Shown here: positions 13,224-62,146 of the stretch, one piece after another
Numbering within the stretch: position 1 is the stretch's first letter
How the letters are laid out: each line of letters begins with the position of its first letter
Assembly (NCBI GenBank): GCA_021786355.1
Contig: JAJYNK010000009.1
Location: 517 to 64,516 of the forward strand
Direction of reading: 5' to 3'
DNA: 64,000 nt
Source: a bacterium
Lineage (GTDB): Bacteria > Patescibacteriota > Minisyncoccia > UBA6257 > UBA9933
Notes under the pieces: model-generated
What the model saw: the letters and a program-made list of their open reading frames with translations, nothing else
What the model was told of the DNA's origin: nothing
The model's database searches: none
Made by a program: the position numbers and the translations under genes

Positions 13224-14186
13224 TTGTTCAGCAAATTAACTAATCAACTAATTAACCAGACTGCAACACGCATGGCTGATATAAATAAACTACTTAAAAA
13301 CTATCTCGACTATCTTGAGATAGAGAAAGGCAGAACCAAAGAAACGCGGGAGAATTACGAACATTACTTAAAAACGTTTTTTGAATTTGCCAGAATAAAA
13401 TCCGAAAGCGATATCAACGCTGACAACGTAAGAGATTTTAGAATCTATCTGGCGCGGCTCCATAATCTTCGAGATGGTGAAAATTTTAAGCGCACAACTC
13501 AAAGCTATTATATAATAGCGCTTAGAAACTTTTTGAAATTTTTGGCGAAAAACGACTATAAAGTTTTGGCTTCGGAAAAAATCGAGCTTCCCAGGATCCC
13601 AAAACAACAAATAGACATAATGGAATACTCGGATTTGGAGCGGCTTATGGCGGCGCCCAAAACAACCGATTTAAAAGGGCTGCGCGACAAGGCGATTTTG
13701 GAAGTTTTGTTTTCAACCGGACTTCGAGTGTCGGAATTGTGCGCTTTAAACCGATATTTTGACTTGAATAGGGGAGAAATTTCCGTACGCGGTAAAGGCG
13801 GGAAAATACGAGTGGTATTTTTAGCCGACTCCGCTAAAAAAGCCATTAAAAATTATCTGGATAAACGAACCGACGCCGAAGAAGCTTTATTTGTGAGCTT
13901 AACCAAAGCAAAAAATCCAAAAGTGCTTGGAAGAATTATTCCTCGCACAGTCCAACGCTTGATAGATTTTTATGGAAGAAAGGCAGGCATCTCACAAAAA
14001 ATCCATCCGCATTTAATCCGACACAGCTTTGCCACTGATTTATTAATAGGCGGAGCGGATTTAAGGTCAGTACAGGAACTTTTAGGCCACAGCAATATCT
14101 CCACAACCCAGATTTATACGCACTTGACCAATAAAGAGCTTAAAGAAATACATAAAACTTTTCACGGGAGACGCAGGAGCGAGTAG
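13224..14186 (+). CDS. Tyrosine site-specific recombinase, XerC/XerD-like (true start possibly MADINK at 13272)
   Basis: Catalytic signatures LIRHSFATDLL (HxxR) and LGHSNISTTQIYTHL (Tyr) plus an N-terminal SAM-like core-binding domain. Confidence 0.85.
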   Translation: MFSKLTNQLINQTATRMADINKLLKNYLDYLEIEKGRTKETRENYEHYLKTFFEFARIKSESDINADNVRDFRIYLARLHNLRDGENFKRTTQSYYIIALRNFLKFLAKNDYKVLASEKIELPRIPKQQIDIMEYSDLERLMAAPKTTDLKGLRDKAILEVLFSTGLRVSELCALNRYFDLNRGEISVRGKGGKIRVVFLADSAKKAIKNYLDKRTDAEEALFVSLTKAKNPKVLGRIIPRTVQRLIDFYGRKAGISQKIHPHLIRHSFATDLLIGGADLRSVQELLGHSNISTTQIYTHLTNKELKEIHKTFHGRRRSE

Positions 14187-14239
14187 AAGCAACCACCAAC
14201 TAATAAGATTTAGGACATAAATAAAAAACGTAGAAGTGT

Positions 14240-14263
14240 CGTTGTATAGTATACTATACAACG
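14240..14263. repeat. Palindrome CGTTGTATAGTATACTATACAACG, one of five copies of the TATAGTATACTATA-core palindrome
   Basis: Other copies at 16889-16912, 32445-32466, 43175-43200 (inside a CDS) and 54896-54923. Confidence 0.85.
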
Positions 14264-14303
14264 CAAGAGGAAACGTACTTTAGTGATTAAATAAGTTTTT
14301 TGT

Positions 14304-14324
14304 TTTGTGTCCTCGGTGGGAGTC
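14304..14324. repeat. 21-bp direct repeat TTTGTGTCCTCGGTGGGAGTC duplicating the tRNA-Leu 3' end (att-like). Second copy at 14483-14503.
   Basis: Identical 21-mer at both positions. The second copy includes the last 17 nt of the tRNA. Confidence 0.8.
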
Positions 14325-14486
14325 CTCTTCCCCCGTAATTTTTCGTTCATAAATAAACATGAAAAATTACTCCTCCAGAGCCGGGGTTTTAAAAAAGCAA
14401 AGCAGTTTGCTTTTTTAAATACCCTTCTCCTCCCTTGTGATGTAAAAACTATAAATCCCTTTGAAATCAAAGGGATTTATAGTTTG

Positions 14487-14568
14487 TGTCCTCGGTGGGA
14501 GTCGAACCCACAACCCTTACGGGATAGCGTCCTAAGCGCTACGCGTATTCCATTTCCGCCACGAGGAC
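14487..14568 (-). tRNA. tRNA-Leu (anticodon UAG), long variable arm
   Basis: Reverse complement folds as acceptor GTCCTCG/CGAGGAC, anticodon stem TAGCG/CGCTA with loop CTTAGGA, variable arm TCCCGTAAGGGTT, T arm GTGGG-TTCGACT-CCCAC. Confidence 0.8.
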
Positions 14569-14629
14569 ATATTAAACAAATAAATTATACATTATTAAAG
14601 TGTGCTTTTTAATAAACCCCCTTATTTTA

Positions 14630-14708
14630 CCCCGTAGTGAATTTTGACTTTATTAATTTTATAAATTAATGTCGCCTTTGGCGACTACAGTCAAAATCTA
14701 CTATAGTG
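14630..14708. repeat. Hairpin repeat, family H copy 1 (CCCCGTAGTGAATTTTGACT ... AGTCAAAATCTACTATAGTG) with inner hairpin GTCGCC-TTT-GGCGAC
   Basis: Seen in the sequence. Belongs with copies at 14831, 40933, 43802 and 56613. Confidence 0.8.
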
Positions 14709-14830
14709 TTGACTTTTAAATAATTTTATTGTATTATATCTCAATATTTTGGATTAGACAATCCCACACATAAATACTGTGTATGGGACAAACTATCCCA
14801 AAATTTGCTCTTATAAATAGTTTACGTCAA

Positions 14831-14909
14831 CCCGGTAGTGAAGCTTCGGCCGAAATAAATTTTATCCTCCGACGTAACGTCGGAGGAAAGCCGAAGTTCT
14901 ACTACGGGG
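14831..14909. repeat. Hairpin repeat, family H copy 2 (CCCGGTAGTGAAGCTTCGGCC ... GCCGAAGTTCTACTACGGGG) with inner hairpin CCTCCGACG-TAA-CGTCGGAGG
   Basis: Seen in the sequence, immediately upstream of the higher-GC operon starting at 14953. Confidence 0.8.
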
Positions 14910-14952
14910 TCAATAATTCTGATATCTTAATCCTGAAAGGGGGACGACAACC

Positions 14953-16612: not shown

Positions 16613-16618
16613 TCTTTG

Positions 16619-16738: not shown

Positions 16739-16742
16739 TTTG

Positions 16743-17413: not shown

Positions 17414-17442
17414 TTCGACCTCGACCTTTTTCTTTATATTTA

Positions 17443-17994: not shown

Positions 17995-18026
17995 CATTTT
18001 TAAAATTATAAAAAATTTTTAACTGC

Positions 18027-18377: not shown

Positions 18378-18388
18378 GGTTTTTCGTT

Positions 18389-18442
18389 GTCATCCCGAGC
18401 GTGGCGAGGGATCTCGAGATTCTTCGCTTCGCTCTGAATGAC
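18389..18442. repeat. Repeated 5'-UTR element D copy 1 (GTCATCCCGAG...AGGGATCTCGAGATTCTTCGCTTCGCTCTGAATGAC)
   Basis: A near-identical copy at 33201-33262 overlaps the holB start codon. Short terminal inverted ends GTCAT/ATGAC. Confidence 0.75.
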
Positions 18443-18476
18443 TCTTTGTTGTTGGTTGTAGGTTGTTAGTTATTGG

Positions 18477-32497: not shown

Positions 32498-33205
32498 TTA
32501 TTTTTTAGCGTTTTTTAAAAGACTTTCAACCAGTCGAACTTGGAGTTTTTTGTTTAAATTAAAACGCTTCATTAAAGAAAGACGGTTAAGAGCCTCTTTT
32601 AACACGAGGTGATTTTTTTTAACGTCCTTTGCCAGTTTGGCGATTATTTCGTTAAGTTTTTCTGTTTGGTCATCGCCATTTGATTCTTTTTTTTCTTTTT
32701 CTGATTTTTCAGGATGGGGACTCGCCCTCCGAAGCCTTGGCGAAGGAGGGAAATAAATTTTCTGGAAACGCGAAGAAACGGTTGGTAAAAGATTTTCCGG
32801 ATTTTGCCCTATTAAAATTATCAAGGACTGCTTGGGCGGTTCTTCAACTATTTTTAATATCGCGCTTTGAGCTTCAGAAGTTAATTTTTCGGCTCCGGTG
32901 ATTATAACTGTTTTTCTTTTAGCCACAGCCGGCCGATAATAAAGAAATTTTTGCAGATTGCGAATTTCATCTATGCCGATACTACCCTTTTCATTGGGGC
33001 CGATAACGGACAAATCCTGCAGCAGCTTGCTTGAATCGCCAAACTTTCCGATTTCCAAAAAATTCGCCAGCTTTTTGGCAAAATTAAAAATTTCTTTTTG
33101 GCTTTCTCCGAAAAAAAAATAAGAATGGGAGAGATGGCTGTTTTCGGCAAGCGATTTAAAATTTTGTTCGGCTTCTTTGAAAAAATCCATTGGTTTATTT
33201 GTCAT
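32498..33205 (-). CDS. holB: DNA polymerase III delta-prime subunit-like (AAA+ clamp-loader lid)
   Basis: SHSYFFFGESQ (Walker A-degenerate, delta-prime-like) and the TVSSRFQKIYFPP sensor region. Confidence 0.65.
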   Translation of the reverse strand: MTNKPMDFFKEAEQNFKSLAENSHLSHSYFFFGESQKEIFNFAKKLANFLEIGKFGDSSKLLQDLSVIGPNEKGSIGIDEIRNLQKFLYYRPAVAKRKTVIITGAEKLTSEAQSAILKIVEEPPKQSLIILIGQNPENLLPTVSSRFQKIYFPPSPRLRRASPHPEKSEKEKKESNGDDQTEKLNEIIAKLAKDVKKNHLVLKEALNRLSLMKRFNLNKKLQVRLVESLLKNAKK

Positions 33206-33262
33206 CCCGAGTCGCCTTAGGCAACGAGGGATCTCTCGATTCTTCGCTACGCTCAGAATGAC
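33201..33262. repeat. Repeated 5'-UTR element D copy 2. Its end (GGGATGAC) supplies the holB ATG.
   Basis: Shares GTCATCCCGAG and AGGGATCTC..GATTCTTCGCT.CGCTC.GAATGAC with copy 1 at 18389. Confidence 0.75.
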
Positions 33263-33281: not shown

Positions 33282-33689
33282 TTATCTCTTTTTCATTTTA
33301 ATTATTTTCAAAACGTCTTTACCGCTTAAAATTTCCGCGTTAGACCCGATAACTTTGAGTCCGTTATATTCCTTAGGGTCGTGGGAAGCGGTAATTATCG
33401 CGCCCGGAGCTTTGAATTTATTAGCACAAAAGTTGAGCATAGGCGTTGTAGAAAGACCGATATCGATTATATCCAATTCACCTTTACTTCCTTCAATAAG
33501 GCCTTTCACGAAAGATTTTTTAAGTTGCGGGGAGCTCAAGCGGACATCCTGGCCGATAAAAAATTTTTTATTTTTATTTTTGGTAAAATATTTTCCGAGA
33601 GCAGAGCCAATTTCAAAAAAAGTTTTTGAATTAACATCGGAAGGATATTTTCCTCTGATATCGTAAGCTCGAAAGATACCTTGGTTCAT
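33282..33689 (-). pseudogene. Phosphohexomutase (PGM/PMM/GlmM family) fragment: domain I only, 135 aa
   Basis: Contains the catalytic-Ser loop ITASHDPKEYNG (compare TASHNP) but ends after domain I. Full enzymes are about 450 aa. Confidence 0.6.
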
Positions 33690-33690
33690 T

Positions 33691-33718
33691 GGTTAATTAG
33701 TTAATTGGTTGATTAGTT
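33691..33718. repeat. Octamer-repeat motif M (GGTTAATTAGTTAATTGGTTGATTAGTT) immediately upstream of the start codon of the 33689 gene
   Basis: Related copies at 13234-13257, 54811-54840 and 62110-62146. Confidence 0.75.
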
Positions 33719-33815
33719 CAATAATACAGAAGTAGGTCACGGATGGCAATTTTACTTTACAAAAAAACTATATCTGCTACTTTTAAGACAGCACAAATCC
33801 AGCGAGGAGGCGATT

Positions 33816-40932: not shown

Positions 40933-41009
40933 GCCCTGTAGTGAATTTTGGCTTGATAAAATCTGATTTTATTCGCTTTTGGCGAAGACAGCCAAAATCT
41001 ACTACTGGG
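40933..41009. repeat. Hairpin repeat, family H copy 3 (CCCTGTAGTGAATTTTGGCT ... GCCAAAATCTACTACTGGG)
   Basis: Seen in the sequence. A half-copy (ATATGCCCGGTTAGTGAAAAAACGATTGATT) follows at 41024-41059. Confidence 0.8.
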
Positions 41010-41059: not shown

Positions 41060-41180
41060 AGCTTTTTTCCAACCAAACCGTCGCTGGGCATAAATTAACT
41101 AAAAACATAATTTTAGGTAAAACAGAGGCGAAACAAATTAAAATCTTATTTTAATTTAGATCGTTTTTCTACTACCGGGT

Positions 41181-41967: not shown

Positions 41968-42041
41968 CGCGGGCGACCGGATTTGAACCGGCGACCTCTG
42001 CCGTGACAGGGCAGCGCTCTACCAGACTAAGCTACGCCCGC
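41968..42041 (-). tRNA. tRNA-Asp (anticodon GUC)
   Basis: Reverse complement folds as acceptor GCGGGCG/CGCCCGC, anticodon stem CTGCC/GGCAG with loop CTGTCAC, T arm GCCGG-TTCAAAT-CCGGT. The 5' end overlaps the last 15 nt of the LAGLIDADG ORF. Confidence 0.8.
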
Positions 42042-42695
42042 TTGCCGGTATATATTATATTTTCTCCTTAAATAAATCAACTTTTCTGGATTACGCTCGT
42101 ACATGAACATAAATAATTTTCCTGAGTCCCTAATAGAATAATTTAGATACCAAGAATTATCGCTTTTTTTAAAAAGTGATCCTGTAAGATTTATCGAATC
42201 CGATAAGGCCTTTTTTAACTCCTTGATAAAAACTTCGCTTCCTGAAGTAAACCGGCTAAGAAGTACTCGCGATTTGTTTTTTCGATCCGCTTTTTTAAAA
42301 AACCCGAATGAAACATTTCCGCCTCCATCAAAATAACCTCGCACAAAGTGGCAAAAATATTTACTTGGGACGCGTGGTAATTTTATTGTTTTGCTTTTTG
42401 CCGGAGTAAGACCTAATTTTATTAAGTCACAAAACATGGCCTTACTCCCTATTTGCAATCTATAAACGGTCTTGTGCTTTTTATCTCTTTGAATAATCGA
42501 AATTTTATGGTTTGATTCAAGAGTTTTTTGAATTTCTCTTAATAAATCCGCGTCTGTAATTTGAAACTCTATAAAATGCGCGCCTCTTTTGTTTTTAAGC
42601 ATATTCCCATCCGCCGTGAAAAACCCCAAAATATACGCCATTTCCGGAGTCCATTTTTTGAAAAAATTTTCGTTTTTTGTTTTATAAATCGGCAT
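42027..42695 (-). CDS. LAGLIDADG homing endonuclease (two-motif, monomeric type)
   Basis: Motifs AYILGFFTADGN and HFVRGYFDGGGNVSF. Confidence 0.8.
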   Translation of the reverse strand: MPIYKTKNENFFKKWTPEMAYILGFFTADGNMLKNKRGAHFIEFQITDADLLREIQKTLESNHKISIIQRDKKHKTVYRLQIGSKAMFCDLIKLGLTPAKSKTIKLPRVPSKYFCHFVRGYFDGGGNVSFGFFKKADRKNKSRVLLSRFTSGSEVFIKELKKALSDSINLTGSLFKKSDNSWYLNYSIRDSGKLFMFMYERNPEKLIYLRRKYNIYRQAGVA

Positions 42696-42729
42696 TTATA
42701 CCAATTTTACCACAAAAAACATGGATTTT

Positions 42730-43563
42730 TTACTTCGGTTTTATAACTATAAATCTTTTCTTCCACCCTTTTTTAAATTCCTCTGTTGTGGCTTTTCTCT
42801 CAATAAGATTTGGATTGTTTATGTCGGGATCGGCGAATAAAACAATGTCGCCGTCTATCCCAAAAATAACCACCAAATGTCCGCCGTTTTGCGGATTTAG
42901 ATTCTTATATATGGAAGCTATGACCGGCCCGTTTTTTAACTCTTCAATCATTCGTTCAAAAGCGGTTTCCGTTTCTTCTTTCGCGAAATCAAATCTATTG
43001 CCCCTTAAACCAAAGTGTTTTACTGCGGCGTCTATTAATCCTTGATGCAGCCACCCTATGTTTTCTACATAAGCTTTGTTTTTGACCCCGTCGGAAATTA
43101 TAAAGTCAACTAAAAATTCGGAAAGTTTTTTCATCTTATCTTCGTCTACGTTTTTTGTCGGCCAAGCTCTTTCCAAGTGGTATAGTATACTATACCACTT
43201 GACTGAGTCGTGTTCGTCTAATAATTCGTTGAGTTTGTTTGTTTCGTTGCTTATCCAGTTTGCGTCATTTACGCTAGAAATAATCTTTGAATCTTTTAAA
43301 AGTTTTTTAATCGCTTTAACTACGTTTGGATCTTTTTTTGAAACACAATAAATCACAATCATCGCCAAAGAAGCGGGACCGCAGACTCTTTTTGCCCAAA
43401 ATTCGTTGCAGCCGTCGCCTTCGCAAAGCCCCTGTCCGTCCGGCAGGCGGGCATACCCGCTTTTGCCGATATCCAAATGCTGAGAAATGTTAACCGGAAG
43501 ATGGTGGCGAATTAAGAATTTTTTTTCCCGTCTTTTGTCCTGTTTTTTATTTATCGTATTCAT
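42730..43563 (-). CDS. Papain-like cysteine peptidase, C39-like family (Peptidase_C39_2-like)
   Basis: Cys box RVCGPASLAMIVIY and a C-terminal GGHLVVIFGIDGDIVLFADPD His/Asp region. The CDS contains a 26-bp perfect palindrome encoding KWYSILYHL. Confidence 0.5.
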   Translation of the reverse strand: MNTINKKQDKRREKKFLIRHHLPVNISQHLDIGKSGYARLPDGQGLCEGDGCNEFWAKRVCGPASLAMIVIYCVSKKDPNVVKAIKKLLKDSKIISSVNDANWISNETNKLNELLDEHDSVKWYSILYHLERAWPTKNVDEDKMKKLSEFLVDFIISDGVKNKAYVENIGWLHQGLIDAAVKHFGLRGNRFDFAKEETETAFERMIEELKNGPVIASIYKNLNPQNGGHLVVIFGIDGDIVLFADPDINNPNLIERKATTEEFKKGWKKRFIVIKPK

Positions 43564-43771
43564 GCCCGGTAGTAGAACAACGATTTATAAATCAAATATT
43601 TCTAAATATTTGATTTATTCCGTTTATTTAAATTAGATTTGTTTATTTATAAATATCTTTATATTTTACCCTTCAATGATTTAATAACCAGAAAAGGAAT
43701 CGATCGTTGTTTCACTAACCGGGCATATTTTGTTAAATCTACTTGATATTGAAATTATTGCAATATTTTAC

Positions 43772-45971
<2,200 letters not shown>

Positions 45972-46102
45972 AAAAGAATGCCCCTGCCTGAGACCAGGCA
46001 GGGGCTTAAAAAAATGAAATATTGCCGTAAATACCTACCCTCCTTTCGGTGTGCTAATTAAAACTTAGCACAGTATACAAAATTTGTCAATACCCTTAAA
46101 AT

Positions 46103-47842
46103 GTGGTATTTTATAACCCTATTATGGCTTCCGCAACAGTAGAAAATTTAATAAAAATCTCCCGGGAAAAACGATTAACAAAATCAGTTGACGCGGCGCT
46201 TATTCAAAAAGCGTTTTCTTTTTCCAAGTCAGCGCACCAAGGACAAAAAAGAAAGTCCGGCGAGGAATATTTCAATCATTCGTACCAAACAGCCCTGCAA
46301 CTGGCCGAATGGGGACTAGACTCAAACACAATTTCAGCCGGCCTGCTTCATGATGTTGCCGAAGATACGCTTAAAACTCTTGATGATATAAAAAATACTT
46401 TCGGCGAAGAAATAGTTTTTTTGGTAAACGGCGTTACAAAGTTGGGTCGATTAAAATACCGAGGAACCCAAAGACAGGTGGAAAATTTAAGAAAAATGTT
46501 TCTGGCAATCAGCGAAGACCTTCGCGTGGTTTTAATAAAACTCGCGGACCGTCTTCATAATATGAAAACTCTCGGCGCGGTGCCTTTGCAAAAGCAAAAA
46601 AGAATAGCTCTCGAAACCGATGAAATTTACGCGCCTTTGGCATACCGGCTTGGAATGCAAAACCTGGCGGGCGAATTGGAAGATTTGTCCTTCCCATACC
46701 TTCATCCGCAGGAATACAAGTGGCTTAACGAAAACGTAAAAGAAAAATATGAAGAGCGGTTGAAGTATTTGGAAAAAGTAAAAATCGTTGTCAATGATTT
46801 ATTAAAAAAAATTGGTATTTCTCCGGCAGGAATAGATTTTCGCGCCAAACGCTACAGCAGTTTGTACAAAAAACTTATTCGCAACGAAATGAATTTGGAA
46901 CAGATTTACGACCTGGTCGCGTTCAGAATAATCGTTTCGTCCGTTGAAGAGTGTTACGCGACGCTGGGCGCTATCCACCAAATGTGGCCGCCGCTTCCGG
47001 GAAAAATAAAAGACTATATCGCTTTGCCAAAACCGAACGGCTACAGAAGCCTGCACACTACGGTTTTTTGCGTTGACAATAAAATTGTGGAATTTCAAAT
47101 CAGAACAAAAGAGATGCACGACGAAGCGGAAAACGGCATTGCCGCCCACTGGGCCTACCATGAAGCGAAAGAAAAAAACCTCGAAAATAAACCTGTTTTC
47201 ACCAGTAGAAAAGAACTGGAATGGGTTAATCAGCTAAAAAATTGGCAGGAAGAATTTTTAAATTCCGGAGAGTCTTTAGAGGCTCTTAAAATAGATTTTT
47301 TTAAAGACCGGATTTTTGCCATCACGCCGAAAGGGGAAGTGATCGACTTACCGGCCGGGTCCACGCCGGTTGATTTTGCCTATTCAATACACAGCAAAAT
47401 AGGGGACAATTGCGTCGGCGCGAAAATAAACAATAGAATTGTTCCGCTGGATTATCAAATTCAATCGGGCGATATGGTTGAAATACTTATTCAAAAAAAC
47501 AAAAAACCTTCCGAGTCGTGGGTGAGATTCGTGAAAACCGATATTGCCAAGAAAAGGATTCGTTCTTCTCTTAAAAAAGATCACTTGCCCGGAAGCCGAG
47601 AGCGTCTGCGCACGGAAATCAAAATCATCGCCGAAGACAGAATTGGCTTGTTAAAAGACATAACAAGCATTGTTTCTCGATCTCACATTAATATAAGTAA
47701 TGTTTTAACTGCCCCGACTTCGCCGATTTTAACGTCTATAAAATTTCTTTGCGACACAAACAACAAAGACAAAATCGAGAAAGTAATTTTGAAACTAAAA
47801 AAAATAAAAGAAATTAAGCAGATCGGCTCTAAACTTATTTAA
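46103..47842 (+). CDS. RelA/SpoT-homolog (p)ppGpp synthetase/hydrolase (start possibly MASATVEN at 46124)
   Basis: HD hydrolase motif LHDVAEDT, synthetase region (YKKLIRNE...DLVAFRIIV) and a C-terminal ACT-like tail. Confidence 0.8.
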   Translation: MVFYNPIMASATVENLIKISREKRLTKSVDAALIQKAFSFSKSAHQGQKRKSGEEYFNHSYQTALQLAEWGLDSNTISAGLLHDVAEDTLKTLDDIKNTFGEEIVFLVNGVTKLGRLKYRGTQRQVENLRKMFLAISEDLRVVLIKLADRLHNMKTLGAVPLQKQKRIALETDEIYAPLAYRLGMQNLAGELEDLSFPYLHPQEYKWLNENVKEKYEERLKYLEKVKIVVNDLLKKIGISPAGIDFRAKRYSSLYKKLIRNEMNLEQIYDLVAFRIIVSSVEECYATLGAIHQMWPPLPGKIKDYIALPKPNGYRSLHTTVFCVDNKIVEFQIRTKEMHDEAENGIAAHWAYHEAKEKNLENKPVFTSRKELEWVNQLKNWQEEFLNSGESLEALKIDFFKDRIFAITPKGEVIDLPAGSTPVDFAYSIHSKIGDNCVGAKINNRIVPLDYQIQSGDMVEILIQKNKKPSESWVRFVKTDIAKKRIRSSLKKDHLPGSRERLRTEIKIIAEDRIGLLKDITSIVSRSHINISNVLTAPTSPILTSIKFLCDTNNKDKIEKVILKLKKIKEIKQIGSKLI

Positions 47843-48170
47843 CTAAAAAAATTTCCTTTGAGATTATTTCAATTACTTCTTTTGCTTCGAGTTTAAAAAT
47901 TTTTGCCGCTGGAGAAATTAAAATATCAATTCCTTTTTTAGAGGTATTTTTTTCTTGATTTTTTCCTTGACGGAAATATTCAAAAATTATTCTTTTAACT
48001 CGGTTCCGCCGAACTGAACTTTTTTCTGTTTTTTTGCTTATGACTAAGCCGACGCGATCAAATGGAAGTTGATTGGCCAAATACCTGAAATAAAAATTGG
48101 AGGTTTTGATAATTTTCGGTTTTTTTGATAAAAATTCCTTAACCGGCAGACGAAATTTCTTTGCCAACAT
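47835..48170 (-). CDS. rnpA: Ribonuclease P protein component
   Basis: SKKTEKSSVRRNRVKRI matches the RnpA RNR motif region. 111 aa, immediately downstream of rpmH. Confidence 0.8.
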   Translation of the reverse strand: MLAKKFRLPVKEFLSKKPKIIKTSNFYFRYLANQLPFDRVGLVISKKTEKSSVRRNRVKRIIFEYFRQGKNQEKNTSKKGIDILISPAAKIFKLEAKEVIEIISKEIFLVK

Positions 48171-48185
48171 TGGTTTTTGAAAAAA

Positions 48186-48320
48186 TTAAGCCGAAATTCT
48201 TTTTCTTCCTTTTGCTCTTCTTCTAGAAAGCGTTCTTTTGCCGCCGGAGGTTTTTGATCTCTTTAAAAATCCGTGCGAGCGAGCCCTTTTTCTTTTTTTG
48301 GGTTTATAGGTTATAGACAT
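48186..48320 (-). CDS. rpmH: 50S ribosomal protein L34 (44 aa; not in the ORF track because it is under 60 aa)
   Basis: Hand translation of the minus strand gives [44 protein letters not shown], matching the L34 consensus (..KRTFQPS..RKR.HGFR.RM.T..GR.VL..RR.KGR..L). Confidence 0.85.
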
Positions 48321-48497
48321 TATTTATTATTGTAGTAAAATCTTTTTAAAAATACAAGGGGGGGGAGGATGGTTTTTCTTATGTTTTAAAAGCGTTTTAA
48401 AAGTTATCAACACTTAATTCACATTTCTATCTTTTGCCTGCATTTGACATCGCTTTTTTTACTTATAAACTTGAGTTATTAGTTTTACTTCTTTTTT
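48321..48497. other. Origin-proximal AT-rich region upstream of dnaA (candidate oriC part 1)
   Basis: Classic rpmH-rnpA / dnaA-dnaN arrangement. Contains TTATCAACA (one mismatch to the DnaA box) at 48394-48402, a duplicated GTTTTAAAAG, and a G8 tract followed by GGAGG ATG and a 6-codon mini-ORF. Confidence 0.55.
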
Positions 48498-49856
48498 ATG
48501 GATCACGAACAAGTTTGGAAACAGGTTTTAGCAGAGGTTGAAATTCAATTATCCAAGCCCAATTTTGTTACGTGGTTTAAAAACAGCCGCTTAATTGAAA
48601 AAAACGACGACGGTCGAGTCATTGTCGGGCTCGGAAATAATTTCGCCAAGGAATGGGTTGAGAATAAATACCATAAATTGCTTAGCGACATTTTTTATTC
48701 ACTTGATTCGTCGGTAAAAAAGGTGGAATACGCTGTTTTGACATTGCCTGCCGAACAAAGACCGCAACCTTATAGCCGAGCGCCCGCGGTTTCAAGCCAA
48801 CCGGCGCTTATAGAGGTAAGAATCGATCCGGAAACGAATCTTCATCCTCGTTATAATTTTAAATCTTTTATTGTTGGGTCTTCAAATGAACTTGCTTACG
48901 CCGCTGCGATGGGGGTTGTTAAAGAGGTTGGATCAAAATATAATCCTCTTTTTATTTACGGGGGCACGGGACTTGGTAAGACCCATCTTCTTCAAGCGAT
49001 CGGCAATGAAATTAAATTTAATTACAAAGAGCGGCTTAAAACAAAATATGTTCCTTCGGAAAAATTCGTAAACGATATTATTTCGGGAATTCGTAATAAA
49101 AGGATGGAGGATATAAAAGACAAATATCGAAGCGTCGACGTTTTAATTATTGACGACATCCAATTTATCGCCGGCAAAGAAAGAAGTGAGGAAGAATTTT
49201 TCCACACTTTTAATGTTTTATACGATAGCGGCAAACAAATAATAATCTCGTCAGATAGACCGCCAGCGGCAACACCAATTTTAGAAGAGCGCCTAAGATC
49301 TCGTTTTAGCGGGGGAATGATCGCGGATATTGGTTTTCCGGATTATGAAATGAGGGTGGCCATAATAAAATCCAAAATTCGAGAAAAAGGAATGGGCCTG
49401 GAAGATGCTTTATGCTCCTTAATAGCCTCTAAAATACAAAGAAATATAAGGGAATTGGAAGGGGTTTTGAATAAGATCGTTTTTTACCAAGAAGCTAAAA
49501 ATATAGAGCCGAGCCATGAATTAATTAATGAAATAATAGAAAAAAACATCAAACAAACATTTAAAAACGTTTCTCCGACTCAAATAATAAAAGCGGTTTC
49601 CGGTTTTTTTGAAATTACTGAAAAAGAAATTTCCGACCACTCGCGCCGAAAAGAATTAGTGGAGCCAAGACAGATTGCGATGTATTTATTGAAAGATATT
49701 TTGGGGATGTCCTATTCTGATATTGGGAATAAGTTGGGGAAAAGAGACCACTCAACGGTTATTCACGCGTGCGAAAAGGTCTCAAAAAAGATTAATAATG
49801 ACCAGAAATTAAACCAAAAAATTATTTTAGTTAGAGAAATCATCGAGAAGAATTAA
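48498..49856 (+). CDS. dnaA: Chromosomal replication initiator protein DnaA
   Basis: AAA+ Walker A GGTGLGKTHLLQAIGNE, DnaA signature and a C-terminal HTH (..IAMYLLKDILGMSYSDIGNKLGKRDHSTVIHA). Confidence 0.95.
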   Translation: MDHEQVWKQVLAEVEIQLSKPNFVTWFKNSRLIEKNDDGRVIVGLGNNFAKEWVENKYHKLLSDIFYSLDSSVKKVEYAVLTLPAEQRPQPYSRAPAVSSQPALIEVRIDPETNLHPRYNFKSFIVGSSNELAYAAAMGVVKEVGSKYNPLFIYGGTGLGKTHLLQAIGNEIKFNYKERLKTKYVPSEKFVNDIISGIRNKRMEDIKDKYRSVDVLIIDDIQFIAGKERSEEEFFHTFNVLYDSGKQIIISSDRPPAATPILEERLRSRFSGGMIADIGFPDYEMRVAIIKSKIREKGMGLEDALCSLIASKIQRNIRELEGVLNKIVFYQEAKNIEPSHELINEIIEKNIKQTFKNVSPTQIIKAVSGFFEITEKEISDHSRRKELVEPRQIAMYLLKDILGMSYSDIGNKLGKRDHSTVIHACEKVSKKINNDQKLNQKIILVREIIEKN

Positions 49857-49973
49857 TTTATCAACAGAATTTAAACATTATTTTTTTTGATTTTTTTATT
49901 TAATTAAATGAATTTTTGCGCTTATCCACAAAATTTCATTCCTCTACTATAACTACAATTTATATTTATTATT
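49857..49973. other. dnaA-dnaN intergenic region with a perfect DnaA box TTATCCACA (49922-49930); candidate oriC part 2
   Basis: Consensus 9-mer seen directly, embedded in very AT-rich DNA. Confidence 0.6.
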
Positions 49974-51089
49974 ATGAAATTAATAGTATTGAAAACTAAT
50001 TTAAGAGATGGGTTGGGTATTGTTGGAAAAATAAATTCAGAAACGCCATCACTCCCAATCTTAAAAAATTTTTTATTGGAAACAGTTGATAATCAAATTA
50101 AAATTTCCACAACTAATTTAGAACTGGCGATTACCGGGTATGTTTCCGGAAAAATAATTGAAAACGGAGGATTAACTATTCCGTTGAATATTTTTTCGGC
50201 TATTATTAACAATCTTCAAAGCGAAAGAATTGAGTTAGAAACCGAAAAAGATAATTTAATAATTAAAACGGAAAATTACGAAGCTAAACTTCAAGGAATA
50301 AAAAAAGAAGACTTTCCGCTTTTGCCAAAAGTGGAAAACAGTGAAAATTATATTGAGATTCAAAACTCTATTCTTAAAAAAACTCTAGCGTTGGTTATGA
50401 GCGCCGCCCAAGCTTCCAACGCGAGACCGGTTTTGAATAGTATTTTATTAGATTTCCAAACAAGTTTCATAAAGTTAGCCGCCACCGACGGTTTTAGATT
50501 GGCGGAGCAAACAATAAGCGAGAGTTATTATAAAACAAATCTTGAAAAAAACATAAAAATGGTTATCCCTCTAAAAACAATCCAAGAATTAATAAGAATT
50601 ATTCAAGACGAAGAAAACGGCAATATTAGGGTTTATTTCGATAATAATTTAATAATTTTTAAAAACAACAAATATGAGGTTATTTCAAGATTAATAAACG
50701 AAGAATTTCCAAATTACGACCCAATCATACCGAAGGTTATAAACACTGAAATAATAGTAAATAAAAACCAACTAATAAGCGCGCTGAAGTTAACTGGGGT
50801 TTTTAGCGACAGATTAAACGAAATAAAAATAAACATCCCAAAAGAGAGGAAGAATATCGAAATTTATTCATCCAACTCGTTTGTGGGAGAAAATAAATAT
50901 TTAATTCCGGCGAAAATAAAAGGAGAGCCGCTGGAAATAGTTTTTAATTGGCGGTTTATAACCGATGGAATAAAAAATTTAGAAACCGAAAATGTGTTTG
51001 TGGGGTTAACAAGCGATAAAAGCCCTGCGCTTGTAAAACCAGCAAGCGACTCCAATTATTTTTATATCGTTATGCCGATTAAGGCGTAA
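49974..51089 (+). CDS. dnaN: DNA polymerase III beta sliding clamp
   Basis: 371 aa. Position after dnaA plus a three-domain clamp-like pattern. Confidence 0.85.
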   Translation: MKLIVLKTNLRDGLGIVGKINSETPSLPILKNFLLETVDNQIKISTTNLELAITGYVSGKIIENGGLTIPLNIFSAIINNLQSERIELETEKDNLIIKTENYEAKLQGIKKEDFPLLPKVENSENYIEIQNSILKKTLALVMSAAQASNARPVLNSILLDFQTSFIKLAATDGFRLAEQTISESYYKTNLEKNIKMVIPLKTIQELIRIIQDEENGNIRVYFDNNLIIFKNNKYEVISRLINEEFPNYDPIIPKVINTEIIVNKNQLISALKLTGVFSDRLNEIKINIPKERKNIEIYSSNSFVGENKYLIPAKIKGEPLEIVFNWRFITDGIKNLETENVFVGLTSDKSPALVKPASDSNYFYIVMPIKA

Positions 51090-51095
51090 GAAAAT

Positions 51096-53198
51096 CTATT
51101 GTGTCCAAGAGCGAACTGGCGTTTCCCAATTTAGAAACTGAGGATCGTCATTTGGATTAGTGGGGGGTGGGCCAAGTGGGTCGTTTCTGTTTACGTAAAA
51201 AAGAATATTGTGGAATTGAGAATTGATATTGTACTGACCGTTCAGTATTGGTTTGGATTGGATTATAGGGTCGGGATTGTTAAATGGTTCATTAGGAAAT
51301 TTACTTATAACTTGTTTCATAAACGAACTCCAAATTGGGAGAGCCGCTAGTATGCTTCCAGCGCTTTTTTGCATTGGTTCTCTGTGGTTGTTTCCGGCCC
51401 AAACGCCAACAGCTAAAGAAGGCGTGTATCCAAAAGTCCAGGCGTCAACGTAGTCGTTGGTGGTTCCGGTTTTGAGCGCGACTTCTCTGTCGTCGAAAGT
51501 TGTCAGGTTGTAGCTGCTCTGATAAAGAGGTCGGCGGGCTTCGTTATCCGAAAGCACATCGTTTATAAGTCGAGCGTATTGAGAGTCTATGGCTTGGATT
51601 GGCTTATCAACAAAACTTTCCATGATCCTTCCTTTGGAATCTTTGATGTTTAAAATTATCGTTTGTTGATGTCGCGTTCCTTCTTGGGCAAAAACTGAAT
51701 AAGCGCCAACAAGTTCGGTAAGTTTTATTTCTCCGCCGCCGAGCACAAGCGAGAGTCCGATTCTATCGGCGTCGTTTAGAGTCGTGATGCCGAAATCTTC
51801 CGCTGTTTTTATGACATTGTTCAATCCGGCTAAGTATAAAACTTTTACCGCCGGCACGTTTATTGATTGGGCAAGGGCATTTCTTAAATTAACCGGCCCG
51901 CGGAAAATATGGTCGTAATTTTGGGGGTGATAACAAGGCGGGTTGCTTATTTGATAATTTATATTCGATAACGGGCACGACGGGTTGTTGGACGCGAATT
52001 CGGTTGGCAAATCAAAAACAACAGTGTCCGGAGAGTAACCTTCTTTAAATGCCGTTGCATAAACTAATGGTTTTATCGAAGAGCCTGGTTGGCGGACGCC
52101 TTGGCTTGCAACATTAAAATTGCCGTCTATAGATTTATCGAAATAATTTGCCGAGCCTACTAAGGCCAGAATTTGACCAGTTTTCGGGTCTTCGGCAACT
52201 AAAGCGGCATTTTTCCCTTTGTAGAGTTCAGCGTTTCGGCTGGCTCCTTCTCTTACGACCTTGTCTGCTGTCTGTTGTAGATCCCAATCAAGGGTTGTGA
52301 TAACTTCGAAACCGTTGGTATTTAAAGCTTCTTCCCCGTACTTATCTATTAAATAATCCCTAACCATCATTACGAAGTGGGGGGCTTTTATGCTGCCGAG
52401 GTTTTGTTGAGTAAATTTAGGCGTTGTTTTTTGAGCTAATTCTTTTTCTTTTTCGGAAATAAACCCCATTTTTTGCATTTGATCGAGAATATGATTTTTT
52501 CTCGCTAAAAGATCGTCACTGTGGTTGCCCCAAGGAGAATAATAAGGGGGTGATTTTGGCAGAACCGCCATTGTGGCGGCCTCGGCGAGAGTCAAATCTT
52601 TGGCTGATTTAGCCAAATAAAGCTGCGATGCGGATTCTATGCCGTAGGTATTCGATCCGTAGGAAATCTGGTTTAAATATAAATTCAAAATAGCATCTTT
52701 CGAATAATATTTTTCTATCCAGTAAGTTAAAATAAGCTCTTTGATTTTTCTCTGCAAAGTTTTTTCGTTTGTCAGAAAAGCATTTTTCGCCAATTGCTGG
52801 GTTATGGTCGAGCCTCCTTGGACAAATTTTCCGCTAAGGATATTTGCGAAAACCGCACGGGCGATTCCTTTCCAATCAAGGCCGGCGTGCTTGTAAAAAT
52901 TTTGATCCTCCGCGGCTATGGTCGCATTTCTCATGTTGTCGGGGATTTCGGTCGATGAAAGGATTGTGCGTCTGCCTTGGCCGCTTATTTCGTAAAGCAA
53001 AATTTTTCCGGTGCGGTCATAAATTTTTGTGGACTGGGCCACTTGCCACGCAACGGCTTTTTCGGGGTTGGGCAAGCTTTTGGCAATTTTTGCCGTTTCA
53101 AATAAGCCCCAAACCGCAATGGCCAAGAAAATAATAAAAAGAACTCCAGAAATTTTTAAAACTTGGTAAAGTTTTTTATTTTTTACCGGAAGAGACAT
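51096..53198 (-). CDS. Class A penicillin-binding protein (PBP1A-type transglycosylase/transpeptidase)
   Basis: N-terminal TM segment, glycosyltransferase motifs (EDQNFYKHAGLD, GGSTITQQLAKN) and a transpeptidase SxxK region. Confidence 0.85.
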   Translation of the reverse strand: MSLPVKNKKLYQVLKISGVLFIIFLAIAVWGLFETAKIAKSLPNPEKAVAWQVAQSTKIYDRTGKILLYEISGQGRRTILSSTEIPDNMRNATIAAEDQNFYKHAGLDWKGIARAVFANILSGKFVQGGSTITQQLAKNAFLTNEKTLQRKIKELILTYWIEKYYSKDAILNLYLNQISYGSNTYGIESASQLYLAKSAKDLTLAEAATMAVLPKSPPYYSPWGNHSDDLLARKNHILDQMQKMGFISEKEKELAQKTTPKFTQQNLGSIKAPHFVMMVRDYLIDKYGEEALNTNGFEVITTLDWDLQQTADKVVREGASRNAELYKGKNAALVAEDPKTGQILALVGSANYFDKSIDGNFNVASQGVRQPGSSIKPLVYATAFKEGYSPDTVVFDLPTEFASNNPSCPLSNINYQISNPPCYHPQNYDHIFRGPVNLRNALAQSINVPAVKVLYLAGLNNVIKTAEDFGITTLNDADRIGLSLVLGGGEIKLTELVGAYSVFAQEGTRHQQTIILNIKDSKGRIMESFVDKPIQAIDSQYARLINDVLSDNEARRPLYQSSYNLTTFDDREVALKTGTTNDYVDAWTFGYTPSLAVGVWAGNNHREPMQKSAGSILAALPIWSSFMKQVISKFPNEPFNNPDPIIQSKPILNGQYNINSQFHNILFYVNRNDPLGPPPTNPNDDPQFLNWETPVRSWTQ

Positions 53199-54218: not shown

Positions 54219-54276
54219 ATAATTTTCAATTTTTAATTTAAAATTTTCATTGAATTTTTAATGACTCAATTTAAAA

Positions 54277-54810: not shown

Positions 54811-55015
54811 GGTTGGTTGATTAGTTAATTGGTTAGCTGGCAAGAAGAGACAAGATAATAATAGAATAGAAACTAAGGAGATAAAAGTCAAAACCTAAGT
54901 TGTATAGTATACTATACAACTTAAACTTTCTTTTTTAGAGAATAATTTGTGTGTAAAAAACAGCCCGTTGGCGAAACGCCGCGGGGCTGGTGCAAAGAGC
55001 GAGAAAATCAGATGT

Positions 55016-56601: not shown

Positions 56602-56612
56602 GAGAGCGATAT

Positions 56613-56756
56613 GCCCCGTTAGTGAAGCTTCGGCCGATTAAATTTTTATTGATAAATAGTTAACCAAAAATAACCAAACTTTAAAAAAATGAAAGAGTCG
56701 TTGATAATAAAATTTAATTTGCCTTCGGCAAAAAAGCCGAAGCTCTACTACGGGGT
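56613..56756. repeat. Hairpin repeat, family H copy 5 (GCCCCGTTAGTGAAGCTTCGGCC ... GGCCGAAGCTCTACTACGGGGT), forming the whole dnaE 5' leader. Its 3' end abuts the dnaE ATG.
   Basis: Seen in the sequence. Inner hairpin TGCC-TTCG-GCA. About 100 nt of AT-rich spacer. Confidence 0.8.
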
Positions 56757-59927: not shown

Positions 59928-60005
59928 CATTAATTAGTAATTTTAGCGGGGAATACAAAGCTAATTTATTGAAATTATCGCTTTTCTGGTATAAAGTGGT
60001 CTTTA

Positions 60006-61859
60006 ATGGCTCAAAATGAAGATAAAGATCTTGATAAAAAAAGGCACTCTTTGGCCCATATTTTAGCAATGGCGGTTTTGGACTTATGCGCGGATAAACG
60101 CGGACTAAACGCGGAACAACGCGGAAAAGGATCTGTTCAATTAGGAATCGGACCGACAATAGAAAACGGATTTTATTATGACTTTGACTTTTCGCAGACG
60201 AAAGCGGATCAACGCGGATCTAAACGCGGATTTACGCAGATAACAGCGGAGGATTTGCCGAAAATCGAAGAACGCATAAAAGAATTAGTCTCGCACGATT
60301 TGAAGTTTAAAAAAGAAGTTATAACATTTGAACAAGCGAAGAAACTTTTTAAAAACCAAAAATATAAACTTGAGCTTATCAAGGAGTTAAAAGATCAGAA
60401 AAAGGCGATTAATATTTACGGCACTTTCGGAAAAGACCCAAAAGAAACTTTTGTTGATTTATGCGCCGGGCCGCACGTCAAATCAACAAAGGAAATAAAC
60501 AAAGGCGCTTTTAGACTGACAAAGCTTGCGGGCGCGTATTGGCGGGGCAGCGAAAAAAATCCGATGTTAACCCGAGTTTACGGCGTGGCTTTTAACACTC
60601 CAGACGAACTTAAGGATTATTTAAAACTTTTAGAAGAAGCGGAAAAGCGCGATCACAGAGTTTTGGGCGAGAAAATGGATTTGTTTACGGTCGATGAGAA
60701 TATCGGAAAGGGTTTGCCGTTGTGGCTACCGAAAGGCTATCTAATACGCCGATTAATTGAAGATTATATTTATAAGGCGGAACAGGAAAACGGGTATCTC
60801 CATGTTTTAACTCCGGAATTAGCCAAAGAAGTTCTTTATAAAACTTCGGGACATTTGGCGCATTATAAAGAAGATATGTACTCGCCCATAGAGATTGAAA
60901 ACGAGAAATATTATTTAAGGCCGATGAATTGTCCGCATCACCACTCCATATATAAGCACAAATTAAGAAGCTATAAGGATTTGCCTTTAAGAATAGCGGA
61001 GTTCGGCACGGTTTACAGGCACGAAAGATCGGGGGTGTTAAGCGGACTTATAAGAGTGCGGGGATTTACGCAAAACGACGCGCATATTTACATAACTTCC
61101 GAAAAACTGGAAGCGGAGATTATAAAAATATTGGAAATCCACAAGAAAGTTTTTGATGATTTTAAAATCAGCGATTATTGGTTTAGATTATCGCTTCCGG
61201 ATTTCAAAAATAAAGAAAAATACGGCGACATAAAAAATCGGAAAATGTGGGAACAAGGAGCGGAGGTTTTAAAAAAAGTTTTGAACAAACAAAAAATAAA
61301 ATTTGTTGAGGGCGTCGGCGAAGCGACTTTTTACGGACCGAAAATCGACGTTCAAATAAAAAATATTTACGGCAAAGAAGACACAATTGCAACAATTCAG
61401 GTGGATTATTATTCCGCCGGAAGATTCAATTTAAACTATATAGATAAAGACGGCAAAGAAAAACCGGTTGTGATAATTCACCGGGCGATACTGGGATCTT
61501 TTGAAAGATTTTTCGCTTTCCTTTTGGAAAAAACCGGAGGAGATTTGCCTTTATGGCTGGCCCCGGCGCAGGTAAGGATTATAAATATCGGCGAGGGCCA
61601 CAGAAAATACGCCGAAGATATTTTAACCGAACTTATAAAAAATAAAATCAGGGCAGAGTTAAGCGATGAAGACTCGACGGTTTCAAAAAAAATTCGTGAA
61701 GCTGAACTTCAAAAAATACCTTATATATTGGTAGTCGGTGACAAGGAAATTCAAAATAAGACCGTTAACGTACGACACTATAAACGCGGCCAGGAAGGAG
61801 AAATGAGCTTAGACGCAGTTATTAAAAAAATCGAAAACGAAGTCGAAAGTAAAATATAA
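60006..61859 (+). CDS. thrS: Threonine--tRNA ligase (no N-terminal TGS domain)
   Basis: Second additional domain HSLAHIL..., class II catalytic motifs (RPMNCPHH, FRLSLPDF) and an anticodon-binding domain. Confidence 0.9.
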   Translation: MAQNEDKDLDKKRHSLAHILAMAVLDLCADKRGLNAEQRGKGSVQLGIGPTIENGFYYDFDFSQTKADQRGSKRGFTQITAEDLPKIEERIKELVSHDLKFKKEVITFEQAKKLFKNQKYKLELIKELKDQKKAINIYGTFGKDPKETFVDLCAGPHVKSTKEINKGAFRLTKLAGAYWRGSEKNPMLTRVYGVAFNTPDELKDYLKLLEEAEKRDHRVLGEKMDLFTVDENIGKGLPLWLPKGYLIRRLIEDYIYKAEQENGYLHVLTPELAKEVLYKTSGHLAHYKEDMYSPIEIENEKYYLRPMNCPHHHSIYKHKLRSYKDLPLRIAEFGTVYRHERSGVLSGLIRVRGFTQNDAHIYITSEKLEAEIIKILEIHKKVFDDFKISDYWFRLSLPDFKNKEKYGDIKNRKMWEQGAEVLKKVLNKQKIKFVEGVGEATFYGPKIDVQIKNIYGKEDTIATIQVDYYSAGRFNLNYIDKDGKEKPVVIIHRAILGSFERFFAFLLEKTGGDLPLWLAPAQVRIINIGEGHRKYAEDILTELIKNKIRAELSDEDSTVSKKIREAELQKIPYILVVGDKEIQNKTVNVRHYKRGQEGEMSLDAVIKKIENEVESKI

Positions 61860-61909
61860 AGCAGATTTTTGTTGACTTTTGAGGGCTATTTATATATTCT
61901 TTTAAAACT

Positions 61910-62107
61910 ATGGGTGGCGTGCCAATGAAGCATCATACAAAGTCAAAAGTAGGGAGACGGAGATCGCATCTCGCGTTAAAGCCCTCCTCTATTTTTGTTT
62001 GTTCAAATTGCAAACATCCGACGTTGCCCCATAGGATTTGTTCCAATTGCGGCTTTTACAAAGGGAAGCTTATGAAGGAGCAGAAAGTGAAGGTAAGAAA
62101 AAGCTAG
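61910..62107 (+). CDS. rpmF: 50S ribosomal protein L32
   Basis: HHTKSKVGRRRSHLALKP...CSNCKHPTLPHRICSNCGFYKGK is the L32 zinc-ribbon pattern. Confidence 0.75.
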   Translation: MGGVPMKHHTKSKVGRRRSHLALKPSSIFVCSNCKHPTLPHRICSNCGFYKGKLMKEQKVKVRKS

Positions 62108-62109
62108 CA

Positions 62110-62146
62110 GGTTAATTGGGGAACTGGTTGATTAGTTAATTGGTTT
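62110..62146. repeat. Octamer-repeat motif M copy (GGTTAATTGGGGAACTGGTTGATTAGTTAATTGGTTT) between rpmF and nusB
   Basis: Contains the shared core TTGATTAGTTAATTGGTT. Confidence 0.7.

Follow-up and report, generated by a model that had tools for sequence, protein, structure and literature searches.

The cyanobacterial STRR (short tandemly repeated repetitive) sequences were reportedly set up as a named class by Mazel et al. in 1990. Tandem repeats of the heptamer TAACTGA, found in Beggiatoaceae, cyanobacteria and some Bacteroidetes, lie mostly in the forward orientation and end 1 nucleotide (nt) before start codons that have no ribosome-binding site (RBS), while one set lies reversed directly behind a stop codon; S1, a cold-shock protein (Csp) or CsrA were proposed as partners and translational control as the role, with no function established (MacGregor 2015, PMC4679880). 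For the GGGAATC repeats of Xanthomonas and the GGGGAYT repeats of Nostoc, a rule of polarity with respect to the neighbouring open reading frame (ORF) has been published, and G-quadruplexes (G4) were discussed, without a regulatory role being assignable (Rehm et al. 2015, PMC4692102). Deletion of Nostoc heptamer repeats near start codons or promoters alters reporter output, their role being unsettled (bioRxiv 10.1101/2022.06.06.494920). No explanation has been given of what heptamer-type intergenic repeats do, from their first description onward. Here, we report on a tandem octamer of the unit RGTTRATT that occurs at four gene borders in a 64,000-nt stretch of a patescibacterial genome (GenBank assembly GCA_021786355.1, contig JAJYNK010000009.1, positions 517 to 64,516), called the window below. 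The tandem octamer, its strict polarity at ORF borders, its wide phyletic spread and its turnover by whole units are firmly supported.

The octamer and the TAACTGA repeats (PMC4679880) are alike in many respects. Both are tandem and intergenic with a unit that contains TAAC; the forward copies lie a few nt from start codons, in most cases with no RBS; overlap with ORFs is limited by stop codons; the downstream genes have no function in common and the distribution across phyla is patchy. The octamer differs by its 8-nt unit, by a leader strand that is fully G-free, by a much wider spread (Planctomycetota, Omnitrophota, WOR-3, Atribacterota, Ignavibacteria and Patescibacteria), and by the inverted pairs that a third of its arrays form. 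With the GGGAATC and GGGGAYT repeats (PMC4692102), it shares an identical polarity, in which the G-rich strand has an ORF on its 5′ side whatever the orientation of that ORF, as well as a location mostly between co-directional genes, functionally unrelated neighbours and a length that varies between relatives; those repeats form G4, the proposed reason for their behaviour, and carry no stop codons, whereas RGTTRATT cannot form G4. The cyanobacterial STRR and Nostoc heptamers likewise consist of tandem intergenic units near starts, but they have 7-nt units, belong to another phylum and come with no reported analysis of polarity. It is firmly supported that the octamer belongs to this known and little-studied class of polar 7–8-nt intergenic repeats (TAACTGA/GGGAATC/STRR type). 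The polarity rule and the start-abutting form are already published for other units; new are the octamer unit, its lack of G4 capacity and its wide cross-phylum spread. RGTTRATT differs from the described families TAACTGA, GGGAATC and GGGGAYT, and a full-text literature search with the exact octamer strings found no paper.

Four arrays in the window and the spread of the octamer across phyla

The four sites named in the original prediction, made from the window sequence, were correct in sequence and coordinates when checked against it: 13234-13257 (AATTAACTAATCAACTAATTAACC), 33691-33718 (GGTTAATTAGTTAATTGGTTGATTAGTT), 54811-54840 (GGTTGGTTGATTAGTTAATTGGTTAGCTGG) and 62110-62146 (GGTTAATTGGGGAACTGGTTGATTAGTTAATTGGTTT). 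Each holds three to five units of RGTTRATT. The enrichment is far beyond chance: the 18-nt core with at most three mismatches has seven matches in the window against 0.20 expected, and two tandem RGTTRATT units with at most two mismatches have 11 against 0.98, all but two of them inside the four clusters. Tandem Repeats Finder (TRF) independently calls period-8 arrays at 13234-13256 (2.9 copies) and 33681-33718. The window arrays thus show the head-to-tail organisation of the 7–8-nt intergenic repeats, with a period of 8 and 2.9–4.8 copies.

Three of the arrays are in leaders, with the A/C-rich strand as the sense strand. The first (13234..13257, + strand; three units, AATTAACT AATCAACT AATTAACC) ends 14 nt short of the ATG at 13272 of a gene identified with Pfam as a Phage_integrase or Xer-type tyrosine recombinase; 47 nt 5′ of it, in the divergent rpsO–xer intergenic region, a degenerate partner in the G/T orientation, AGTTAATTGGCT, occupies 13176..13187 (+). 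The second (33683..33722, − strand; about 4.8 units) has its last unit 1 nt from the ATG (33689-33687) of a 135-amino-acid (aa) ORF at 33282-33689(−), in which Pfam recognises domain I of the phosphohexomutases (PGM_PMM_I) only. The third (54811..54838, − strand; about three units) touches the ATG of yebC (54810-54808) at a distance of 0 nt. The fourth array (62110..62146, + strand; about 4.5 units) has the opposite orientation, with the G/T strand as sense: it starts 2 nt past the stop codon (TAG, 62105-62107) of rpmF, a 65-aa ORF at 61910-62107, and ends 29 nt before the ATG of nusB (62176). Pfam confirmed the identities of YebC and NusB; among named homologues, those nearest to YebC belong to Patescibacteria (Paceibacterota, Wolfebacteria, Parcubacteria), where a YebC of about 176 aa is usual. 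The ORF with the lone PGM_PMM domain I is identical in 22 contigs from different samples, and represents either a stand-alone domain that is conserved or the stable remnant of a gene.

The claim that the octamer abuts four start codons holds for the yebC and PGM_PMM_I genes, not for the recombinase gene, from which the array is 14 nt away, nor for the fourth copy, which abuts the stop codon of rpmF. That this fourth copy is the mirror image of the others, a 3′-trailer form with the G/T strand as sense, had been overlooked.

To assess the distribution of the octamer, one genome per bacterial or archaeal species was scanned with the 18-mer TTRATTAGTTAATTGGTT, which gave at least 120 loci; all cross-phylum counts below rest on the matches listed. 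A back-of-envelope calculation gives a few dozen matches for random sequence. Of the 133 listed matches, 130 sit in arrays of 3–19 in-phase units, and a random 8-mer passes the unit test with a probability of 0.012; since the chance of a further in-phase unit is about 1% per flanking position, these are genuine arrays and an origin as chance matches is rejected. Judged by the record titles, octamer arrays are present in at least 10 phyla among the matches listed, so that the unit is not specific to the lineage of the window as had been suggested. Most of the listed loci are from Bacteroidota (Chitinophagaceae, Ferruginibacter, Paludibacter, Saprospiraceae and Flavobacteriales, cultured isolates included) and about 17 from Planctomycetota (Pirellulales, Phycisphaerae, Sedimentisphaerales). 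Other listed carriers are Ignavibacteria, Omnitrophota, WOR-3, Atribacterota, Patescibacteria, Cloacimonadota and Desulfobacterota, with single listed matches in Gammaproteobacteria, Cyanobacteria and Bacillota. Cultivable carriers among the listed matches are Myroides odoratimimus CCUG 39352, Zunongwangia pacifica, Belliella calami DSM 107340 and Nibrella saemangeumensis JCM 17927; Ferruginibacter OY730416.1 and Paludibacter sp. STB_57 JAQTUE01 are examples of array-rich genomes.

Polarity at the borders of open reading frames

For about 1 Mb of loci from other phyla, arrays of at least three units were oriented on their G/T strand, and long ORFs were called alike on both sides. Only two of 149 arrays in these other genomes are inside genes. 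A gene border no more than 30 nt away was found on the 5′ side of the G/T strand in 75 of the 147 intergenic arrays, and on the 3′ side in eight; a separate, TRF-based census of borders gave 84 and 9, respectively. The placement of the octamer relative to genes, random placement having been named beforehand as the outcome that would speak against a role at gene borders, is therefore strongly non-random across phyla. The 75 borders on the 5′ side consist of 34 starts of genes on the opposite strand, where the A/C strand runs into the ATG, and 41 stops of genes on the same strand; the reversed, stop-abutting form is thus as common as the start form, unlike in the TAACTGA repeats. On the mRNA strand, the pattern reads stop-(GGUURAUU)n or (AAYYAACC)n-AUG. 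All four window sites follow the rule, three in the leader form and one in the trailer form.

The stop codon is followed by T in 27 of 43 cases and lies within the first unit in about 16, and the start junctions are mostly AACC-ATG or AACCAATT-ATG, without a fixed phase. Most arrays are flanked by co-directional genes. The flanking genes identified with Pfam are ordinary housekeeping genes of unrelated functions with natural N- and C-termini: an AMP-binding acyl/acetyl-CoA synthetase-type enzyme (acs-like), purB, rtcB, a peptidase S9, aspS, guaA, gatA, purA, cobQ and one more with a CobB/CobQ-type glutamine amidotransferase C-terminal domain (possibly purL). In one locus (L099), the apparent stop-abutting case turned out to be a shadow ORF of a real gene on the other strand; the remaining long ORFs that were checked are real genes. 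An arrangement in which A/C and G/T arrays flank the same gene (5′-AC, gene, GT-3′), as for circularisation of the mRNA or a mobile cassette, is not enriched (five cases against three, six and seven of the other arrangements). The −7 motif of Bacteroidetes, TAnnTTTG, is not enriched either: it lies upstream of 4 of 32 A/C arrays, with a background of 6%.

The same asymmetry is met in repeats of other sequence. When TRF was run over the 1 Mb of fetched loci with the octamer family excluded, and 7–8-nt repeats that abut exactly one gene border were retained, the strand pointing outward from the gene had more G than C in 48 and more C than G in 11, with no T/A bias. This points to a general cause of the polarity that is linked to G/C skew. 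As RGTTRATT cannot form G4 and GGGAATC has no stop codons, neither property is the common cause; a polarity common to G4-forming and stop-less repeats rules out explanations specific to those sequences.

The window itself holds further short repeats at gene borders. Behind nusB, a heptamer array of TTAGRGT (62623..62648, + strand; 3.4 copies) begins at TAG, the stop codon (62626-62628), on a sense strand that has no C as far as 62664 (42 nt); here, the same polarity rule goes with a different, telomere-like unit. About four copies of a heptamer-like repeat, GAAAATT, at 54219-54249(−) fill the spacer between yebC and ruvC and abut the ruvC ATG at 54218.

The octamer could be useful beyond the window. 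How start codons are chosen without Shine-Dalgarno (SD) pairing is still open in Bacteroidota, many Patescibacteria and other lineages, and the octamer offers a handle both on this question and on that of the intergenic heptamers: it is exact and short, has no G4 capacity, occurs in many phyla including cultivable isolates and obeys an orientation rule that is easily scored. In the annotation of genomes from uncultivated lineages, start codons and operon borders might be located with the aid of the polarity rule.

Orthologous sites, leaders and what the arrays may do

Near-identical strains were compared by aligning six to nine contigs per site, from the 22 that carry each gene. At this level, the arrays are invariant and show no polymorphism in unit number, except in one contig where two point changes create an extra unit. 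Relatives at a greater distance differ by whole units. In the trailer of rpmF, the 4.5 units of the window compare with 3.5 in L146 (JGI Ga0209514_10000064), a step of 8 nt, and the TAA stop of L146 is inside the first unit; in L148, the trailer is degenerate, yet still C-poor. The yebC leader carries octamer arrays in L146 and L152 (86% protein identity) and in L154 (76%; about seven degenerate units against about three in the window), and a degenerate array in L148. In L153 (Ga0265296_1004776, ~1470-1500; 82%), the octamer is replaced by four copies of a G-free heptamer, CCCTAWA, that run into the ATG. The persistence of some G-free repeat at this leader despite the change of unit fits selection on a property rather than on a sequence. 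Orthologues with a YebC identity of at most 69% lack an array; their yebC either looks leaderless or is preceded by a strong SD. Length thus changes by whole units between relatives both in the rpmF trailer and in the yebC leader. Ahead of rpmF, the same L146 contig carries (ACTAACT)x4 as an insert between the conserved TTGACT-17-TATTCT match and the ATG; in the window, rpmF looks leaderless, with a match to TTGACT-17-TATTCT that ends 9 nt before its ATG (61872-61912).

An insertion element that carries its own start codon, one of the readings offered in the original prediction, does not agree with these comparisons. The N-terminus of YebC, ATG-TCN-GGN-CAT (MSGH), is the same in orthologues without an array, and its constancy throughout implies that the repeat does not bring the start codon; in array-led genes of other genomes, the Pfam profiles begin at residues 4–7, at the natural N-termini.

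Promoters in this work are matches to the consensus and are to be taken as predicted throughout. Directly upstream of the PGM_PMM_I array, the sigma-70-like match TTGCCA-17-TATTAT (33721..33749, − strand) agrees with the consensus at 10 of 12 positions; the predicted transcription start falls inside the first unit and the array makes up about the whole of the predicted leader of some 25 nt. A second sigma-70-like match, TTGACT-17-TATTCT (54863..54891, − strand), lies about 46 nt upstream of the yebC ATG, and the last 28 nt of the predicted leader of about 46 nt are array; as this match is kept in relatives with YebC 76–86% identical, the array is placed in the predicted 5′ untranslated region (UTR). 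For the recombinase gene, no two-hexamer promoter match was found, and an extended −10 box, TGATATAAT, was recognised by eye at ~13165-13173. The predicted RNA fold of 13176-13290 has −19.2 kcal/mol (z = −2.2), and in it the G/T half-site (13177-13185) pairs with the distal A/C unit (13249-13257).

The three A/C leader copies are G-free and contain neither a start codon nor an SD. It had been claimed that in three cases the A/C strand runs directly into the ATG with no SD in between: the absence of an SD was borne out and two arrays do reach the ATG, whereas the recombinase array stops 14 nt short; moreover, a missing SD is not distinctive here, SD-like motifs being present in only 11 of 57 window genes (19%). 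Many window genes have a TATAAT-like box 6–10 nt ahead of the ATG, as in leaderless mRNAs. None of the four arrays is overlapped by a terminator-like site, and G+C-rich stems and U-tracts are absent there. With Rfam, only tRNAs were found in the window and no rRNA gene. Pairing with the 3′ region or helix 17 of 16S rRNA was considered, and a likeness to the Escherichia coli 16S rRNA is not used as evidence. Some other candidates were dropped. G-free or C-free runs are too frequent in this A+T-rich genome to be diagnostic. The 3′ end of the trailer array, TTGGTT, could locally serve as the −35 box of a leaderless nusB; among the 147 arrays, however, only three have a gene start within 30 nt of the 3′ side of the G/T strand. 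By eye, the consensus for integration host factor (IHF), WATCAANNNNTTR, can be matched to some of the GATT-AATT junctions between units; it does not fit arrays made of AATT only, which are the predominant kind elsewhere.

Leaders that work independently of an SD include the omega leader of tobacco mosaic virus (TMV; 8-nt direct repeats of ACAAUUAC), A/U-rich S1-dependent enhancers and the Kozak-like contexts of Bacteroidetes; in these, an unstructured, G-poor stretch just before the AUG recruits ribosomes without SD pairing. TMV omega and the octamer unit share the hexamer CAAUUA, which we take as a lead only, without claiming membership. The reading that we favour, tentatively and at somewhat less than an even chance, is one at the level of translation: a UTR repeat born by slippage and kept in the orientation that is compatible with translation. 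We infer from sequence that the arrays are transcribed as UTR and affect initiation or termination. Arrays would arise and be resized by replication slippage in steps of 8 nt, and only the translation-compatible orientation would be retained. Ahead of a gene, a G-free repeat without AUG, GUG, UUG or an SD-like purine run would form a neutral-to-favourable landing stretch with an A/C-rich end, where the small ribosomal subunit might load with no need of SD pairing and initiate at the first AUG, in the context -ACC-AUG or -ACCA-AUG. Downstream of a gene, UAA-U, UGA-U and UAG-U stops in all three frames would come from the complementary strand, as would often the gene's own stop. A translational role, which had been proposed before for all four copies, appears to be the best-supported reading for the three A/C copies, lying as they do between the predicted −10 box and the ATG.

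Several observations weigh against this reading. The arrays are not kept beyond close relatives. Elsewhere, their distance to the ATG varies from 0 to 29 nt with variable phase (0, 1 and 14 nt in the window for yebC, the PGM_PMM_I gene and the recombinase gene), and some Pirellulales have an SD between the array and the ATG, so that the array is not a fixed-position signal; the fixed spacing from the start codon expected of an SD or rRNA-pairing (epsilon-type) enhancer was not seen. The predicted folding from −35 to +20 is unexceptional in two of the three array-led genes (−1.1, −4.2 and −5.2 kcal/mol, the mean of the window being −5.1), and an unusually unstructured leader is supported for the PGM_PMM_I gene alone. 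As outward G>C polarity is also seen in stop-less repeats such as GGGAATC, the trailer orientation must in general have a reason other than extra stop codons. Action as a hairpin is an alternative for roughly a third of the arrays, those with a complementary partner. The window also holds an exception: a G-free, A/C-rich run, CCAATAACTAACAACCTACAACCAACAACAAA, at 18441-18476(−), to which TRF assigns a period of 7, comes right after the stop of the gene ending at 18477, on the sense strand of that gene; the same run is also about 65 nt upstream of the next gene.

The repeat could instead be functionless, a slippage-prone sequence that expands up to a coding border, its polarity reflecting mutational asymmetry or weak purifying selection against the harmful orientation. 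Fast turnover by 8-nt steps, unit replacement and loss below about 70% protein identity would be expected of such a sequence, as would the absence of a fixed spacing to the ATG and the functionally unrelated neighbours; moreover, many different 7–8-nt units behave alike, and Rehm et al. found no role for theirs (PMC4692102). However, if the cause were purely mutational and linked to transcription or replication, the orientation should stay the same from one end of a transcription unit to the other, and yet it is reversed; the arrays are identical in the aligned strain contigs, the same octamer recurs in at least 10 phyla, and the other G-free repeat in the same yebC leader of a sister lineage suggests that a property is retained. 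We regard the functionless repeat as somewhat unlikely. Tandem sites for a factor acting in trans, either a binder of single-stranded RNA (for instance, S1 or a cold-shock protein) or a DNA-binding regulator that tunes the adjacent gene, would explain why the unit recurs exactly and in tandem across phyla, which fits a universal partner, and S1, Csp or CsrA have been proposed for the analogous heptamer (PMC4679880). Against this, there is no common regulon, the position is variable, the rule also holds for unrelated units, the orthologous yebC site can have another repeat in its place, and a period of 8 bp does not phase on one face of the helix. The dedicated regulator site that the original prediction had put forward is unlikely on the same grounds, with housekeeping neighbours, unfixed spacing and the substitution at yebC, and conservation at orthologous promoters with sharing by functionally linked genes, as expected of an operator or regulon site, is not seen, the repeat being replaced in L153 and absent at 69% identity or less, next to unrelated genes; a trans-acting factor altogether appears decidedly improbable.

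The arrays could also be arms of RNA or DNA hairpins. Where arrays of opposite orientation are at most 200 nt apart, the order is G/T then A/C in 21 cases and the reverse in none. In a looser test that asked for a complement matching at 12 or more of 14 nt and no farther than 150 nt away, 49 of 136 arrays had one on the interior side and one array on the gene side, and the controls with shuffled pairing gave one. Both neighbours were called for 17 pairs; 12 of these are flanked by co-directional genes, with the arms often close to the stop and the start. Arms of the form 5′-(GGUUAAUU)n and (AAUUAACC)n-3′ across an intergenic region could serve translational coupling, by hiding the downstream start until a ribosome ending at the upstream stop melts the 5′ arm, or could be bidirectional terminators, processing sites or insulators; solo arrays would then be decayed halves. 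In the window, the weak partner at the recombinase site pairs in the predicted fold. Two thirds of the arrays are nonetheless solo, including the PGM_PMM_I and yebC sites (by a partner scan) and the rpmF trailer (from the intergenic sequence), and the polarity of solo arrays would still want an explanation; the window sites have no G+C-rich stem or U-tract, and ordinary G+C-rich terminator hairpins often stand between the arms. This makes hairpin arms improbable as the general explanation. Compared with repetitive extragenic palindromic sequences and bacterial interspersed mosaic elements (REP/BIME) or with elements like miniature inverted-repeat transposable elements (MITE), the inverted G/T–A/C pairs, seen in about a third of the arrays, have unrelated centres, and no target duplication was seen. 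Rho prefers C-rich, G-poor RNA, and arrays might be inward-facing Rho loading sites: a polymerase entering an ORF from outside, in sense or antisense, would first transcribe the C-containing, G-free, unstructured repeat and be terminated by Rho unless a ribosome initiates at once, which would silence antisense and untranslated RNA. It is the sole single mechanism considered here that explains a polarity set by the ORF body and not by the direction of the gene, and the composition of the inward strand, with the outward G excess of 48 to 11 across unrelated units, fits a Rho utilisation (rut) site. At 24–40 nt, however, the window arrays are well short of the 60–80 nt or more of rut sites, and it would be costly for a gene to carry a rut site in its leader; we consider this very improbable. 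In a wider proposal, an unlikely one, G/C-skewed 7–8-nt repeats, with RGTTRATT as a cross-phylum attractor, would form a general “ORF-border punctuation” in SD-poor bacteria, the inward side a G-free landing pad and sentinel against untranslated or antisense transcripts, the outward side a C-free trailer, and paired arms bringing the upstream stop beside the downstream start for coupled reinitiation.

Other elements of the window

A second repeat family abuts start codons in the window. Its form YTCTACTACNGGG-Y-ATG is present at 41167-41179(+), 43565-43577(−) and 56743-56755(+), where the 3′ arm alone runs into the ATG of the three genes. Fuller copies of the YTCTACTACNGGG family at 14827-14909, 40940-41009 and 43802-43871 are long hairpins with stems of about 20 bp, CCCNGTAGTGAA..TTCGGC ... 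GCCGAAGTTCTACTACNGGG. A smaller hairpin, GAGATCCCTCG-N-CGGGATGACAA, has two copies against zero expected, at 18387-18415(−) and 33199-33235(−); the ATG in the latter is the start of the DNA_pol3_delta2 gene, and a similar element lies upstream of yebC in L153.

In the divergent intergenic region just upstream of the −35 match of yebC, a perfect 22-bp palindrome, GTTGTATAGTATACTATACAAC, is located at 54896-54923, its extended stem overlapping the −35 box. The palindrome is kept with compensating changes in L146 (GTTGTATAGTTAACTATACAAC), and it could be an operator or a bidirectional hairpin.

The region from about 42000 to 51100 of the window is probably that of the replication origin. The dnaA gene (48498-49856) is adjacent to dnaN (49974-51089), positions 49922-49930 form a perfect DnaA box, TTATCCACA, and the minimum of the cumulative GC skew is at about 42–44 kb of the window. 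Near the left end of the window, a tRNA-Ile gene at 3193-3265(+) has the anticodon UAU, which is uncommon in bacteria.

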